NCBI RefSeq assembly: GCF_003334785.1
Contig: NZ_QOWV01000003.1
Direction: 5' to 3' (one strand)
Origin: Escherichia coli
GTDB lineage: Bacteria; Pseudomonadota; Gammaproteobacteria; Enterobacterales; Enterobacteriaceae
Length of the DNA stretch: 64,000 bases
The notes beneath the pieces were generated by a model. It did not search any database and was not told where the DNA came from. It worked only from the letters and a program-made list of their open reading frames with translations. Positions 21,087-31,550 of the stretch are shown one piece after another. The stretch's first letter is position 1; the number at the start of each line of letters is the position of its first letter. The translations under genes were made by a program, and so were the position numbers.

Positions 21087-21144
21087 TGTAGCGAGCACTT
21101 GCAGATATCGATAAGGGCCACAATAAGCAGCCCTACGAAGATAA

Positions 21145-22116
21145 TTACTTAGCTGCCTGAATATCAGCCAGCATTGGGGCAAGGGCTGGGTTGTCCTTAG
21201 CGAAGTTTGCGTACATTGGCTGTACTTTCTCGATAAACGGAGCTTTATCTACCTGGTAGACTTTCACGCCCATTTTATCCAGTTTTGCAAATTCTTGTTT
21301 CTCTTCCTCGCTCCACAAGTCTTTCATGTAGCTCATTGATTCTTTAGCTGCTTTTAATATAACTGCCTGATTTTCCTGGCTAAGTTTATCAAACGCAGCA
21401 TTGCTCATCAGAACCACATCGGGAACCATAGTGTGTTCGTCAAGGCTGAAGGATTTTGCCACTTCACCGTGACGCATGGTAGTCAGCGCCATCACGCTGT
21501 TTTCTGCCATATCGACCACACCCTGCTGTAAGGCTGTATACAACTCGCCGTAATCCAGTGGCGTCGGGTTACCGCCCATGACTTTGATCATTTCAACTGC
21601 GCCAGGGCTTGGCTGGACACGGACTTTCATGCCTTTCAGATCGTCTGGTTTCAGTACTGGTTTATTGCCATAGAAACTGCGGGCGCCTCCATCATAAAAA
21701 GTCAGCCCGAAATAACCTTTGCTTTTCGTTGAGTCGAGGATTTTTCTCCCGATATCGCCCTGCATGACCTGATAATAATGATCACGATCGCGGAACAAAT
21801 AAGGCAGGCTAAATAATTTATAGGAATTTTCAAATGCTTCCATTTCTGCCGCATTGGTTTTTACCAGGGGAATAGCGCCAGAACGAATCAGCTCCATTGT
21901 TTCTCGTTGAGTACCCAATGTTCCATTTGGATAAATACGAATAGTAATATCACCGTTAGAGTACTCTTTGCTCTTTTTCGCAAAGAACTCCATCGCTTTA
22001 TGAACAGGATGAGACTTATCCTGATTATGACTCAGTTTTAATGTCACTGCCCAGGACTGGCTTGCGGATAACATAAGAACAGCACCGATAATGCCAGCGG
22101 ATACTTTTATTTTCAT
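21145..22116 (-). CDS. TRAP transporter periplasmic solute-binding subunit (DctP family)
   Basis: 323-aa ORF with N-terminal signal peptide; DctP-like by recognition; last gene of a DctQ-DctM-DctP set. Confidence 0.82.
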   Translation of the reverse strand: MKIKVSAGIIGAVLMLSASQSWAVTLKLSHNQDKSHPVHKAMEFFAKKSKEYSNGDITIRIYPNGTLGTQRETMELIRSGAIPLVKTNAAEMEAFENSYKLFSLPYLFRDRDHYYQVMQGDIGRKILDSTKSKGYFGLTFYDGGARSFYGNKPVLKPDDLKGMKVRVQPSPGAVEMIKVMGGNPTPLDYGELYTALQQGVVDMAENSVMALTTMRHGEVAKSFSLDEHTMVPDVVLMSNAAFDKLSQENQAVILKAAKESMSYMKDLWSEEEKQEFAKLDKMGVKVYQVDKAPFIEKVQPMYANFAKDNPALAPMLADIQAAK

Positions 22117-22168
22117 AGATGTTCCTTTTCTAATAAATATGGCGGCAGGTGCCGCCAGTGAATGCGCA

Positions 22169-23470
22169 TCAGTAGCCCAGTGCTCTTGGCAATGCCATAC
22201 TGATTTGCGGAATATAGGTCACCATTGCCAGCACCAATACCATCACGGCATAGAATGGCAGCATAGGTTTGATAATTTTATTAATCGGTAATTTAGATAC
22301 ACTACAACCGACAAATAACACACTGCCTACAGGCGGAGTACAAATACCGATACACATGTTCAGTACCATGACAATACCAAAGTGAATCGGGTCCATGCCC
22401 AGTTCGGTGACAACCGGTAAAAATATCGGCGTAAAAATCAGTACCGCCGGTGTCATATCCATAAAAGTGCCGATAATCAACAGGATAATATTGATAATAA
22501 GCAGGATTATTATTGGGTTGTCAGAAATAGTGTTAAGCAAATCGAGAATCAGGAAGGGAACGTCAGCGTTTGACATTGCCCATGACATACCCATCGAAGA
22601 ACCAATTAATAACAAGACAATTGCAGTGGTAATAACGGATTCCAGAAATATTTTAGGTAAATCTTTAACTGAGATTTCACGATAAAGAACCAGTGCAAGG
22701 AAAAGGGTATAAATTACTGCAATTGCGGAGGCCTCTGTCGGGGTAAAAATACCACTTAATACACCCCCCATAATTAAAATAATCAGGAAAATACTGGGGA
22801 TAGCCATCCATATCGCAACGCCAGCCTGGCGTAAAGTCGGGCGTTCTGGCTTTGGATAACCGCGACGTACCGCGATAATACCGGCTATTACCATCAGTGC
22901 CAGACCCAGCAAAATTCCCGGAACATAACCCGCCAGGAACAGTGCGGCAATAGAAGTACCACCACTGACCAGTGAATAGACGATTAACGTATTACTTGGT
23001 GGAATAAGCAAACCCGTCGGGGCAGAGGCAACGTTAACCGCAGTACTGAATGCCGGGTCGTAACCCTCTTTAACCTGTTGCGGATGCATGACGCCGCCCA
23101 TCGCAGCCGCCGAAGCCACGGCTGAACCAGAAATTGCCCCGAACAGCATATTGGCGAGAATATTACAGTGGGCAAGTGAGCCTGGCAGACGACCGCCGAG
23201 AATACGGGCAAAGTTGATTAATCGTCGCGCTATTCCTCCATGGTTCATAATGTTGCCAGACAAGATAAAAAATGGGATTGCCAACAACGTAAAACTATCT
23301 AACCCGGAGGCTAACTTTTGGGAAACCACACTCAATGCTGAGTTGAAATCGAGTTGTGTGGAAATTGATGCCAGTGTCGATAAACCAATGGCATAAACAA
23401 TAGGTACACCTAATGCCAACATAAAAAAGAAGGCACCAAATAACACAATAATCGGTAACCAGTAATCCAT
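22169..23470 (-). CDS. TRAP transporter large permease subunit (DctM family)
   Basis: 433-aa highly hydrophobic multi-TM ORF, DctM-like; adjacent to DctQ and DctP. Confidence 0.85.
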   Translation of the reverse strand: MDYWLPIIVLFGAFFFMLALGVPIVYAIGLSTLASISTQLDFNSALSVVSQKLASGLDSFTLLAIPFFILSGNIMNHGGIARRLINFARILGGRLPGSLAHCNILANMLFGAISGSAVASAAAMGGVMHPQQVKEGYDPAFSTAVNVASAPTGLLIPPSNTLIVYSLVSGGTSIAALFLAGYVPGILLGLALMVIAGIIAVRRGYPKPERPTLRQAGVAIWMAIPSIFLIILIMGGVLSGIFTPTEASAIAVIYTLFLALVLYREISVKDLPKIFLESVITTAIVLLLIGSSMGMSWAMSNADVPFLILDLLNTISDNPIIILLIINIILLIIGTFMDMTPAVLIFTPIFLPVVTELGMDPIHFGIVMVLNMCIGICTPPVGSVLFVGCSVSKLPINKIIKPMLPFYAVMVLVLAMVTYIPQISMALPRALGY

Positions 23471-23512
23471 AATTTCTCCATTCCTACTATGGTTGGTTGT
23501 TGTTTGTTATCT

Positions 23513-24013
23513 TTAGAGTGGTTGTTTAAGTTCGGTTAAAACCATATCTATGGTGTATATAATAATAAGTACACCACTAATCGGGATGCTCATATAGATA
23601 TATCCCATTTGCCAGCCTAAAGCGGGCGAGGTCTGACCTGAATCGAATGTATCCATCGTTAATAGCCCACCACCATATACCATAATGATGGTTGCGAAGA
23701 TAATAACGATAATCTGAATACACAAAAATAAATGACGTCGGGCTTTTCCTTTCAGCATCATAGGTAGCAGGTCAATCGCCAGATGCCGGTTTTGCCCTGC
23801 GGTGTATGCCCCACCAAAAAGTCCAAGACAAATAAAGAGCAAACGGCTGAGTTCATCTGTAAAAATACTGGGACTAGTAAATATAAATCGTGCAGCCACC
23901 TGCCACGTCACACATGCCACGATGATCGCCAAAATGGTAATGTTCAATGCTGCAAGCAGAGCATTAATAGATCTAATTATATTTCGCATAGTGATTAACC
24001 TTTGCAATATCAT
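23513..24013 (-). CDS. TRAP transporter small permease subunit (DctQ family)
   Basis: 166-aa hydrophobic ORF between flavoprotein gene and DctM; start ATG overlaps upstream stop (ATGA); an internal ATG at 23989 is an alternative start. Confidence 0.78.
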   Translation of the reverse strand: MILQRLITMRNIIRSINALLAALNITILAIIVACVTWQVAARFIFTSPSIFTDELSRLLFICLGLFGGAYTAGQNRHLAIDLLPMMLKGKARRHLFLCIQIIVIIFATIIMVYGGGLLTMDTFDSGQTSPALGWQMGYIYMSIPISGVLIIIYTIDMVLTELKQPL

Positions 24014-30068: not shown

Positions 30069-30242
30069 ACAATAGCTCTCTTTTTTTGAATATTGTTTTC
30101 TAAGTGACAATTAGCTTGCGACGTGCCGCAAGAAAGATCAACCATCTGGTTGGTTGATATGCGATAGTGATCACAGGACATTTGATAACTTGATGAAAGT
30201 ACAAGTTTTTATCCTTTTTACTGGAGCTTCTAATTAATCGGG

Positions 30243-30260
30243 TTAAGATAGTTATCTTGA
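30243..30260. promoter_or_regulatory. candidate TetR operator: inverted repeat TTAAGATA-GT-TATCTTGA, 20 bp upstream of the TetR start
   Basis: 7/8-matching inverted repeat read from sequence in the divergent SDR/TetR intergenic region; additional palindromes GTGATCAC (30167-30174) and CAACCA...TGGTTG (30139-30156). Confidence 0.35.
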
Positions 30261-30280
30261 AGAGGTCGTGGGGAAGCGTT

Positions 30281-30928
30281 ATGTATCTTGATACCAGCAA
30301 CGTACAGAGCCTGAAGGAAAAGCTGCTGTTATGCGCGGTTAATGAATTTGCCGAATATGGTTATGAAGGGGCCAGGGTCGATAATATTGTTAAGGCTGCG
30401 GGGTGTAGTAAACAGACGGTTTATCATCACTTTGGTAATAAAGAAAATTTATTTATTGAAGTACTGGAATATACCTGGAACGATATTCGACAAAAAGAAA
30501 AGGCCCTTGATTTCTCAGATCTTCCGCCACAAAAAGCCATTGAGAAAATTATTGATTTTACATGGGATTATTATATTGCTAATCCCTGGTTTTTAAAAAT
30601 TGTGCATAGTGAAAATCAAAGTAAAGGTGTGCATTATGCAAAATCACAGCGTCTCTTAGAAATTAACCATGCGCACTTGCAGTTAATGGAATCCTTATTG
30701 GATGAAGGGAAGAAACACAATATTTTTAAGCCAGATATCGACCCATTGCAGGTGAATATTAATATTGCTGCGCTTGGCGGATATTATTTGATCAACCAGC
30801 ATACGCTTGGCCTGGTTTATCATATCAGTATGGTTTCCCCCCAGGCACTGGAAGCCAGACGTAAGGTCATCAAAGAGACAATCCTTAGCTGGCTTTTGGT
30901 TGACCCTTCATCTACCGCGCACGAATAA
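30281..30928 (+). CDS. TetR/AcrR-family transcriptional regulator (full length; likely corresponds to the ytfA locus)
   Basis: 215-aa product from ATG 30281; N-terminal HTH typical of TetR (…[17 protein letters not shown]…); divergent from catabolic operon. Confidence 0.85.
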
Positions 30929-31550
30929 AACTGCCATCCGGCTGGCGGGTGAACAGGACCTGTTGATTATTCCCCGTATCAATGGTTAAGCCCGTCACCA
31001 CGCCGCTGGCGTTCTGGCGGATTTTCACCATTTGCCCGTTTTGCAAATTACTCAGCGGCTTACCCGCGCCTTCTACCTGCGCCATTGCATAGACATCGGT
31101 AGCGGGCAGTCCGTGGTCGCGGAACAGCTGCGCCATCGTTTTACCGGGTTCGACACGGTAAGAGCGCCATTGATTATCAATTCCGCTATCTGGCTGGAAT
31201 GGTTGTGTTTGGGTAGTTTGCGGCTGTTCTTCTGGCTGGCCTTCCTGTATAGGTTCTGGAGCGACCGGAGCCACCTGATCAGGATCATTTTGTGGTGTGA
31301 CTAATTGCGCCCGCAGCTGTTCTTCTGTCGGCGGTTGTGATTGCGACTGAATATCTAACTGCGCTTCACGCGTCACCACCGGCGCGTTGGGCGTATCATC
31401 AGATGGAAGCAGAAATCCGACCACCAATATAATGGCGGCAATAATGATCCCCCGACGATGCATCGGCGGCAGCGGGTCCATGAAGCGAAAATTGTCCGGC
31501 GCGTGCCAGACTTTCTCCAGGGTTGGTTTTAGTTCAAAGCGCCCGGGCAT
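30912..31550 (-). CDS. ytfB: OapA/LysM-domain cell-division protein YtfB
   Basis: 212-aa product from ATG 31550; recognised as YtfB; 3' end overlaps the TetR gene 3' end by 17 bp. Confidence 0.85.

Follow-up and report, generated by a model that had tools for sequence, protein, structure and literature searches.

A strain-variable operon between rplI and ytfB of Escherichia coli, predicted to import and degrade an acidic sugar

Which compound do the nine genes between rplI and ytfB serve in a strain of Escherichia coli, and did this strain gain them or did K-12 lose them? The genes occupy positions 21087–30930 of a 64,000-nucleotide stretch of E. coli contig NZ_QOWV01000003.1, the whole of which is here called the window. 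The block matches E. coli ML35 at 100% identity, and the RefSeq annotation of that strain names the same nine genes: three for a transporter of the tripartite ATP-independent periplasmic (TRAP) type, five for enzymes and one for a TetR-family regulator. The operon occurs in more than half of sequenced E. coli genomes as well as in Salmonella, Klebsiella and Citrobacter, and is absent from K-12, the reference strain of E. coli metabolism. An earlier note on this DNA, drawn from the letters alone, had described an inserted catabolic island.

We conclude with high confidence that the block forms one regulated operon for the uptake and catabolism of an organic acid. To judge by its importers and their relatives, the substrate is most probably an acidic sugar of the hexuronate type, that is, a six-carbon ring acid. 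Comparison across genera indicates that the operon is old and ancestral in enterobacteria, and that K-12 deleted it rather than this strain gaining it. Searches of the literature, the curated families and the solved homologues found no description of the operon and no assignment to a characterised pathway.

Gene content and regulation

All nine open reading frames (ORFs) that the earlier note had listed, eight co-oriented on the minus strand and a divergent tetR, are present where it had placed them in the program-made ORF list, and the ML35 annotation agrees. For dctQ, the crotonase, the short-chain dehydrogenase/reductase (SDR) and tetR, the annotated starts are used below. The terminator hairpin that it took as the left landmark (21059–21086 in that note) exists and is found at 21055–21081. 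The features are as follows (CoA, coenzyme A; MFS, major facilitator superfamily; TIM, triosephosphate isomerase).

21055..21090, plus strand: rplI intrinsic terminator (hairpin 21055–21081, 12 pairs, then a T-run); left edge of the variable segment
21145..22116, minus strand: dctP, TRAP periplasmic solute-binding protein, 323 aa (TIGR00787, 246 bits)
22140..22157, minus strand: GC-rich hairpin within the 52 bp that separate the dctM stop from the dctP start (terminator-like scan, 7 pairs, 6 of them GC)
22169..23470, minus strand: dctM, TRAP large permease, 433 aa (TIGR00786, 458 bits)
23513..23989, minus strand: dctQ, TRAP small permease, 158 aa from its annotated start (an extended ORF reaches 24013)
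24010..26091, minus strand: cytoplasmic FAD flavoprotein of FrdA/SdhA/NadB fold and uncharacterised subfamily, 693 aa (PF00890 on orthologs)
24028..24260, no strand: recombination boundary between TRAP-type and MFS-type alleles, at the 3′ end of the flavoprotein gene
26088..27629, minus strand: CoA-transferase, fused family I acyl-CoA:carboxylate type, YdiF/Pct-like, 513 aa (2ahu, E 1e-113)
27639..28415, minus strand: crotonase-family enoyl-CoA hydratase/dehydratase, 258 aa (NCBIfam, E 1e-44)
28425..29267, minus strand: xylose-isomerase-like TIM barrel of the SMc04130 family, 280 aa (3qc0/3ju2, E 1e-84)
29277..30068, minus strand: SDR, 263 aa, first gene of the operon (PRK12745, 417 bits)
30137..30158, no strand: 22-bp palindrome ATCAACCATCTGGTTGGTTGAT, candidate TetR operator (intergenic alignment)
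30160..30175, no strand: CRP-like site TGCGATAGTGATCACA, directly beside the palindrome
30281..30928, plus strand: TetR-family regulator, 215 aa, TetR_N and TetR_C_29 (Pfam domains on orthologs)

Homology searches gave very strong profile and PDB matches (the curated cutoffs are 175 bits for TIGR00787, 268 bits for TIGR00786 and 250 bits for PRK12745), in line with the gene families first proposed. The proposed Frd/Sdh type of the flavoprotein stands for the fold and no further. Catalytic motifs are intact in the crotonase, the CoA-transferase and the SDR, as are the metal-ligand positions of the TIM barrel.

Gaps between neighbouring genes measure 52, 42, −4, −4, 9, 3 and 9 bp, the same range as reported before, with 4-bp overlaps between dctQ and the flavoprotein gene and between the flavoprotein and CoA-transferase genes. 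A scan for terminator-like structures found no strong terminator within the operon. The hairpin at 22140–22157 could modulate the relative expression or mRNA stability of dctP. The gene content, the compact co-oriented layout with a divergent TetR gene and the reading as a unit for uptake and CoA-dependent catabolism of a carboxylate, all proposed earlier, hold up.

The 212-bp region between the SDR gene and tetR has diverged between genera except at the 22-bp palindrome. An alignment of E. coli with the TRAP genes (type A), E. coli with an MFS gene instead (type B), Salmonella and Klebsiella shows the palindrome as the only near-invariant block (one or two variable positions); across genera it reads ATCAACCATCT(G/A)GTTGGTTGAT. 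Across the 64-kb window TGYGA-N6-TCACA is matched solely by the neighbouring CRP-like site, against an expectation of 0.27, and both half-sites of this site are conserved in Salmonella and Klebsiella. Half-site order and spacing rule out the palindrome as an FNR site. The regulator has the N-terminal helix-turn-helix (TetR_N) and the divergent orientation of a TetR repressor, with the conserved palindrome in the shared promoter. The palindrome is a candidate TetR operator and its neighbour a candidate CRP site; the operon is probably repressed by TetR and activated by CRP, which fits a substrate-induced, catabolite-repressed catabolic operon. Together with DctP, the TetR/operator pair makes the substrate question directly testable.

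Importers and the class of substrate

The TRAP system is represented by a binding protein, a small permease and a large permease. DctP and DctM score above the curated cutoffs; DctQ is recognised via annotation, and the Pfam DctQ family matches its Klebsiella ortholog. The nearest solved structures to DctP are glucuronate/galacturonate binders, including 4n15, 4n91, 4n8y and 4x8r. According to published papers, D-glucuronate or D-galacturonate is bound in 4N15, 4N91 and 4MHF, galacturonate in 4N8Y and glucuronate in 4X8R. The binding protein STM3169 holds D-glucuronate with a dissociation constant of ∼0.2 μM, and a conserved TRAP arginine, Arg170 in STM3169, pairs with the substrate carboxylate (PMC7660916).

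DctP and the E. coli ortholog of STM3169 share 56% identity, and R166 of DctP aligns with Arg170 of that ortholog. Six of the seven STM3169-type contacts, among them both arginines, are kept: N35, Q36, R150, R170, N210 and D237 correspond to N31, Q32, R146, R166, N206 and D233 of DctP. At the seventh, E74, DctP has Q70. In Klebsiella, DctP has the same contact residues. DctP is a paralogue of the hexuronate-binding proteins.

The STM3169 ortholog belongs to a paralogous TRAP system that ∼1,100 other E. coli genomes carry between ftsP and ygiQ. We take this to be the position of STM3169–STM3171 in the gene order of Salmonella LT2; the residue numbering agrees. The ftsP-ygiQ TRAP cluster is another strain-variable sugar-acid cluster. 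At this locus in E. coli NCTC11151 (L092, 3414–10887) the TRAP genes are accompanied by genes for a GntR regulator and three enzymes: an oxidoreductase of the Ldh family, a zinc alcohol dehydrogenase and a member of the mannitol dehydrogenase family. The TRAP system of the block resembles STM3169–STM3171 in its binding protein and in its DctQ and DctM partners. It differs in that its DctP is a paralogue at another locus, with Gln in place of Glu74 and a ligand that is predicted only, and in that it lies inside an operon of CoA enzymes rather than standing alone or beside polyol/uronate dehydrogenases.

Three uptake systems share one operon position, behind the flavoprotein gene: the TRAP system or one of two MFS alleles. 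The TRAP genes are found in type A E. coli and in Klebsiella sp., between which DctP is 81–82%, DctM 94% and DctQ 76% identical. MFS allele 1 is shared by type B E. coli and Citrobacter (90% identical) and allele 2 by Salmonella and K. oxytoca (89% identical), with 50% identity between the alleles. Both fall in TIGR00893, the anion:cation symporter (ACS) group typified by DgoT, which also holds the sugar-acid symporters ExuT and GudP. Because one constant enzyme set is combined with three interchangeable importers, we argue that all three import the substrate of the pathway. In some strains dctP is disrupted by IS1, and isolate AF3 has a stop codon inside its MFS gene.

The transporter polymorphism is old, since the TRAP genes of E. 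coli and Klebsiella sp. show synonymous-site divergence on par with the other genes and are AT-rich in both hosts. Their low G+C content (0.40–0.45 in the TRAP genes and tetR versus 0.50–0.55 in the enzyme genes) had suggested a recent replacement of MFS by TRAP; the divergence and equal AT-richness of the Klebsiella TRAP genes speak against this. Identity to MFS-type genomes begins at ∼24251–24260 by megablast and extends to 24028 by blastn, and in E. coli the switch point falls within the final ∼80 codons of the flavoprotein gene. Residues 1–600 of the flavoprotein are 98% identical between E. coli types A and B, versus 55% for the C-terminal ∼90 aa. The allele boundary in E. coli coincides with a fast-evolving C-terminus: between genera the last ∼90 residues (∼600–693; 24010–24280) are 45–69% identical, versus 76–86% for the first 600.

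The relatives and contact residues of DctP, the placement of both MFS alleles in TIGR00893 and the acid-sugar neighbours of the flavoprotein family (next section) are the grounds on which we favour a hexuronate-type acid. The earlier note held that the substrate could not be named. Its class can now be narrowed this far. The compound is not necessarily glucuronate, since E. coli already has the UxaC route for that acid.

The enzymes and a possible CoA-dependent route

The operon is ordinary in its well-known superfamilies and in its layout of local repressor, transporter and catabolic enzymes. It is unusual in joining sugar-type enzymes to a CoA module, in an FrdA-fold flavoprotein without the fumarate-type residues, and in being widely conserved yet lost from K-12.

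The flavoprotein matches the Frd/NadB families at E 1e-36. Its AlphaFold model (predicted local distance difference test score, pLDDT, 89.6) has FrdA/SdhA as its best PDB matches in Foldseek, with a template modelling (TM) score of 0.67, 15–18% identity and E 1e-29. It shares with FrdA, SdhA and L-aspartate oxidase the four-domain fold, the GxGxxG FAD site and, as H437 and R469, the equivalents of FrdA His355 and Arg390. Unlike them, it lacks the covalent-FAD histidine, Arg287 and His232, and has ∼100 extra residues, which are the fast-evolving C-terminal domain. QFGI and WNLSG stand at the positions of FrdA His232 and catalytic Arg287, and all 24 family members in an alignment share these replacements. 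Within 21087–30930 there is no ORF for an iron-sulfur or membrane-anchor subunit. The replaced His232 and Arg287 and the missing iron-sulfur partner rule out a fumarate reductase or aspartate oxidase. The family comprises 422 clusters at 50% identity (E below 1e-30) from Proteobacteria, Planctomycetota, Verrucomicrobiota, Lentisphaerota, clostridia and other anaerobes, and none of these clusters is characterised; every relative in the AlphaFold database (AFDB) is unnamed.

We retrieved 80 genome loci with flavoprotein relatives, searched them with the window proteins and clustered the neighbours; metagenomic contigs of the nearest flavoprotein representatives were too short to inform. The commonest pairing is SDR with flavoprotein (25 of 74 loci). 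Brenneria has SDR, TIM barrel and flavoprotein genes behind a TetR gene, with a PcaK-like aromatic-acid symporter, and its SDR and TIM genes are the closest relatives of those in the block (74% and 71% identity). The same trio is joined by a Gfo/Idh/MocA dehydrogenase, TetR and MFS in Pseudescherichia, Phytobacter and Mangrovibacter, and by a Gfo/Idh/MocA dehydrogenase in Lentisphaeria, Opitutia and Coraliomargarita loci; one planctomycete locus has the TIM barrel, the Gfo/Idh/MocA dehydrogenase and the flavoprotein. Alpha-proteobacterial flavoprotein genes lie with a sugar ABC transporter, two GMC oxidoreductases, an aldehyde dehydrogenase and LacI, and also with a levoglucosan-dehydrogenase-like enzyme and a KdgK-like kinase. 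In Planctomycetes they lie with an SDR, a protein resembling 2-keto-3-deoxy-6-phosphogluconate aldolase and a BNR_4-repeat protein, of a family that may be sialidase-like according to Pfam. The neighbours at verrucomicrobial locus L045 gave no usable substrate clue.

CoA enzymes accompany the flavoprotein less often. A beta-proteobacterium has CoA-transferase, crotonase and flavoprotein genes with TRAP, MaoC, acyl-CoA dehydrogenase, electron-transfer flavoprotein (ETF) and TIM barrel genes, and the CoA-transferase and crotonase genes also lie beside the flavoprotein gene in three alpha-proteobacteria and one Desulfobacterales genome. Acid-sugar processing recurs as a context, CoA-thioester chemistry does so less often, and both are joined in the enterobacterial operon.

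Of the remaining enzymes, the CoA-transferase carries the SVEQG glutamate (E324) and the GPGGF motif. It shares the fused alpha-beta architecture, the catalytic glutamate and the GxGGF motif of the YdiF/propionate-CoA-transferase family I, and differs from its members in genomic partners and presumed acceptor acid. Both crotonase glutamates are present (E115 in GGGIEL, E135 in PEVMLG), and its nearest solved structure is the 3-hydroxypropionyl-CoA dehydratase 5zai. The SDR has the motifs TGAARGIG and YTIAK; its nearest PDB entries, 4da9 and 4one, both come from structural genomics. For the flavoprotein, TIM barrel, SDR and crotonase alike, matches in the PDB and AFDB are limited to structural-genomics or generic entries. 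None of the five enzymes matches the families of the hexuronate isomerase pathway (UxaC, UxuB, UxuA, UxaB and UxaA), which comprise a uronate isomerase, reductases for fructuronate or tagaturonate and dehydratases for mannonate or altronate.

The TIM barrel belongs to the same subfamily as SMc04130 (3qc0/3ju2, 50% identity) and Paenibacillus R4 7vpf (41% identity, E 1e-60), and all three structures are labelled 'putative sugar isomerase'. Its next structural neighbours are IolI and ketose 3-epimerases, and it weakly matches hydroxypyruvate isomerase. Among the sequence and fold matches, no member of the SMc04130 family has an assigned reaction. The Sinorhizobium meliloti gene likewise lies behind a TetR_C_29 regulator and with sugar dehydrogenases, but the clusters of SMc04130 and 7vpf contain neither the flavoprotein nor CoA enzymes. 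The S. meliloti cluster (L095, 4442–11172) consists of TetR_C_29, Gfo/Idh/MocA, DUF993, enolase-like, TIM-barrel and Gfo/Idh/MocA genes and adjoins a sugar ABC transporter; two of the neighbours have no NCBIfam match. It represents a further uncharacterised pathway with the same type of regulator and the TIM enzyme. A function for the operon would give a first function both to the SMc04130 family and to the large FrdA-fold flavoprotein family.

The closest functional parallel that we draw is the E. coli carnitine operon, caiTABCDE. In the Cai pathway, CoA is cycled from product to substrate, the crotonase dehydrates a beta-hydroxyacyl-CoA and a flavoprotein acts on the enoyl-CoA. Both operons combine a transporter, a CoA-cycling CoA-transferase, a crotonase and a flavoprotein, and the crotonase glutamates expected of a Cai-type system are in place. 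The family III transferase (CaiB) and the acyl-CoA-dehydrogenase-type reductase (CaiA) are not: the transferase of the block is of family I and its flavoprotein has the FrdA fold. The block also lacks a CoA ligase and an antiporter, adds the SDR and TIM barrel, and is predicted to act on an acidic sugar rather than a betaine. By this analogy, the block seems to work like the Cai system without being a member of it.

Enterobacteria also offer a precedent for sugar-acid catabolism via CoA thioesters. The 2-deoxy-D-ribonate acyl-CoA route of Klebsiella michiganensis uses a CoA synthetase, a beta-hydroxyacyl-CoA dehydrogenase, a thiolase and a glycerate kinase (PMC6365646). It is encoded at another locus, and the block contains none of these four enzyme types; this different gene set rules out that the block is the deoxyribonate cluster.

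On the Cai model, DctPQM (or the MFS protein) would import the acid, with DctP capturing it in the periplasm. The YdiF-like family I transferase would form its CoA thioester from a cellular acyl-CoA. The crotonase could then eliminate or add a beta-hydroxyl, which in a uronate is the C4 hydroxyl, beta to the C6 carboxyl, and the FrdA-fold flavoprotein could reduce or introduce the alpha,beta double bond, after which CoA would be handed back to fresh substrate. From activation to this return of CoA the steps would parallel the logic of CaiB, CaiD and CaiA, with a non-homologous transferase and flavoprotein. The SDR and TIM barrel may carry out hydroxyl-to-ketone oxidation and ketol isomerisation or dehydration, delivering the skeleton to central sugar-acid metabolism.

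Several points weigh against a hexuronate processed in this way. E. coli already catabolises glucuronate and galacturonate via the UxaC route. The shared binding residues are suggestive, and in paralogues that are 56% identical they do not prove the identity of the ligand. The cluster holds no aldolase, kinase or thiolase, which leaves the exit to central metabolism unexplained. In Brenneria, Pseudescherichia, Phytobacter and verrucomicrobial loci the SDR, TIM barrel and flavoprotein come with no CoA enzymes; the flavoprotein therefore does not have to work on a thioester, and the PcaK-like symporter of the Brenneria trio points away from sugars. The searches turned up no biochemical or genetic datum on any of the five enzymes or their close homologues, and the searchable literature makes no mention of a uronic-acid CoA thioester. 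Taking both sides together, we see about an even chance that a hexuronate-like substrate and Cai-like chemistry go together here.

More broadly, an undescribed CoA-thioester route for uronic-type acidic sugars may exist in enterobacteria and in diverse polysaccharide-degrading and gut anaerobic bacteria; in it, a crotonase would remove the beta-hydroxyl and a previously unrecognised FrdA-fold subfamily would do the redox step. We offer this extension tentatively, as rather unlikely. Such a pathway would have escaped notice because K-12 deleted the operon. With its function assigned, the operon would represent a nutrient niche of gut and pathogenic enterobacteria that differs between strains and may consist of an acidic sugar from the host or the diet.

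Other substrates fit parts of the same evidence. One is a carboxylate of hydroaromatic or cyclitol type, such as quinate, shikimate or one of their reduced derivatives, which we consider distinctly unlikely. CoA activation, crotonase, SDR and flavoprotein would here strip hydroxyls or double bonds, or oxidise the acid in the manner of beta-oxidation, as modelled on the formation of cyclohexanecarboxyl-CoA from shikimate and on the Ali/Bad pathway, with the TIM barrel as a dehydroshikimate-type dehydratase. The 3-dehydroshikimate dehydratase QuiC1 (5hmq) is indeed a structural neighbour of the TIM barrel, but at 19% identity it is no closer than IolI and the ketose epimerases; some SMc04130 homologues are automatically named '3-dehydroshikimate dehydratase', but these names are unreviewed. 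The Brenneria SDR and TIM relatives sit with an aromatic-acid:H+ symporter, whereas the MFS alleles of the Enterobacteriaceae belong to the sugar-acid ACS family and sugar-acid enzymes, not genes of aromatic pathways, are the commonest neighbours of the flavoprotein family. Since carbocyclic polyhydroxy acids resemble pyranuronates in shape, they could be accepted by a glucuronate-type binding protein, and a reference title in PMC13304725 names a shikimoyl-CoA route with an FAD-dependent step in Streptomyces.

Alternatively, two or three separate modules may merely share the locus: an ordinary high-affinity TRAP importer of hexuronates feeding Uxa/Uxu, the SDR-TIM-flavoprotein trio, and the CoA-transferase with the crotonase. 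DctP resembles a straightforward glucuronate binder, the transporter slot has been swapped independently of the enzymes, the trio occurs without CoA genes in many taxa, and by comparison with Brenneria the crotonase–CoA-transferase pair seems inserted between the TIM-barrel and flavoprotein genes. The probability of this arrangement is low. Against it stand the spacing and shared orientation of the eight genes, uninterrupted by a terminator and behind a single conserved regulatory region, the constant five-enzyme order across four genera with any transporter at the same operon position, and the renewed association of CoA-transferase and crotonase with the flavoprotein in three distant lineages.

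A reductive branch like that of the acrylate pathway, acting on a small 3-hydroxy or unsaturated acid of the 3-hydroxypropionate, acrylate or lactate type, is very unlikely. It would take the transferase as Pct-like, the crotonase as a 3-hydroxyacyl-CoA dehydratase and the flavoprotein as a flavin enoate or enoyl-CoA reductase, the SDR forming the 3-hydroxy acid from a semialdehyde. The propionate-CoA-transferase type of the transferase, the 3-hydroxypropionyl-CoA dehydratase as best solved relative of the crotonase, the weak hydroxypyruvate isomerase match of the TIM barrel and the acryloyl-CoA-reductase-like acyl-CoA dehydrogenases with ETF at the beta-proteobacterial and Desulfobacterales loci are consistent with it. 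However, DctP keeps the hydroxyl-contacting residues of a C6 sugar-acid site, and ACS-type MFS alleles and sugar-type neighbours of the trio misfit a C3 acid.

Age of the operon and its loss from K-12

We scored presence in 5,426 complete E. coli genomes, counting the core as present at 80% cover or more. The five-enzyme core is in 3,113 genomes (57%) and the whole block with the TRAP genes in 1,448 (27%), which upholds the earlier description of the block as strain-variable. In the remaining core carriers an MFS gene replaces dctPQM, with or without yjfZ, IS4 or a hipBA module adjoining rplI.

The block had been thought absent from K-12. This is true of most of it: homology to K-12 ends at 21086, up to which type B genomes also match, and resumes at 30526, and the last ∼400 bp are shared as K-12 ytfA. 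This pseudogene is the 3′ half of tetR and is annotated in RefSeq as lacking its N-terminus. By blastn, a relic of the SDR gene (∼110 bp, 81% identical) also survives between yjfZ and ytfA, at 3895–4005 of the K-12 locus (L003), corresponding to window positions 29878–29979. Since these two remnants persist, we read the K-12 arrangement rplI-yjfZ-ytfA-ytfB as a deletion scar. Assigning a function to the operon would thereby explain ytfA.

The same rplI–ytfB site is occupied in Salmonella enterica, Klebsiella oxytoca, Klebsiella sp. RHBSTW-00484 and Citrobacter tructae, with the shared order ytfB-TetR-SDR-TIM-crotonase-CoA-transferase-flavoprotein-transporter-(EamA)-rplI. Third-position identity at conserved codons is 48–66% in the operon genes versus 48–63% in the flanking ytfB, fklB and cycA. 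The block contains no integrase, insertion sequence, tRNA or flanking repeat, and it shows none of the marks of a mobile genomic island, be it an integrase or transposase, an insertion site at a tRNA or between repeats, or recent transfer. Vertical descent with repeated loss is the simplest reading of this distribution. The earlier proposal of a horizontally acquired island inserted into an originally empty, K-12-type rplI–ytfB junction could draw on the absence of the block from K-12 and ∼42% of E. coli genomes and on the lower G+C of the TRAP genes and tetR, but it is highly improbable given synteny in four genera with core-like synonymous divergence, the lack of mobility signatures and the K-12 relics, which already contradict it.

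Minor features of the surroundings complete the description. Upstream of the rpsF-priB-rpsR-rplI operon lies the RpsF leader (RF02893, 110 bits, 19512–19596), which alone was recovered by an Rfam scan. The convergent 3′ ends of tetR and ytfB overlap by 17 bp (30912–30928), an overlap also present in Salmonella, Klebsiella and Citrobacter. Directly behind the rplI terminator, the segment 21087–21144 and its equivalents form a hotspot that, depending on strain and genus, holds yjfZ, IS4, a hipBA module, an EamA transporter gene or nothing, and in O157:H7 IS609 sits in the TetR remnant.

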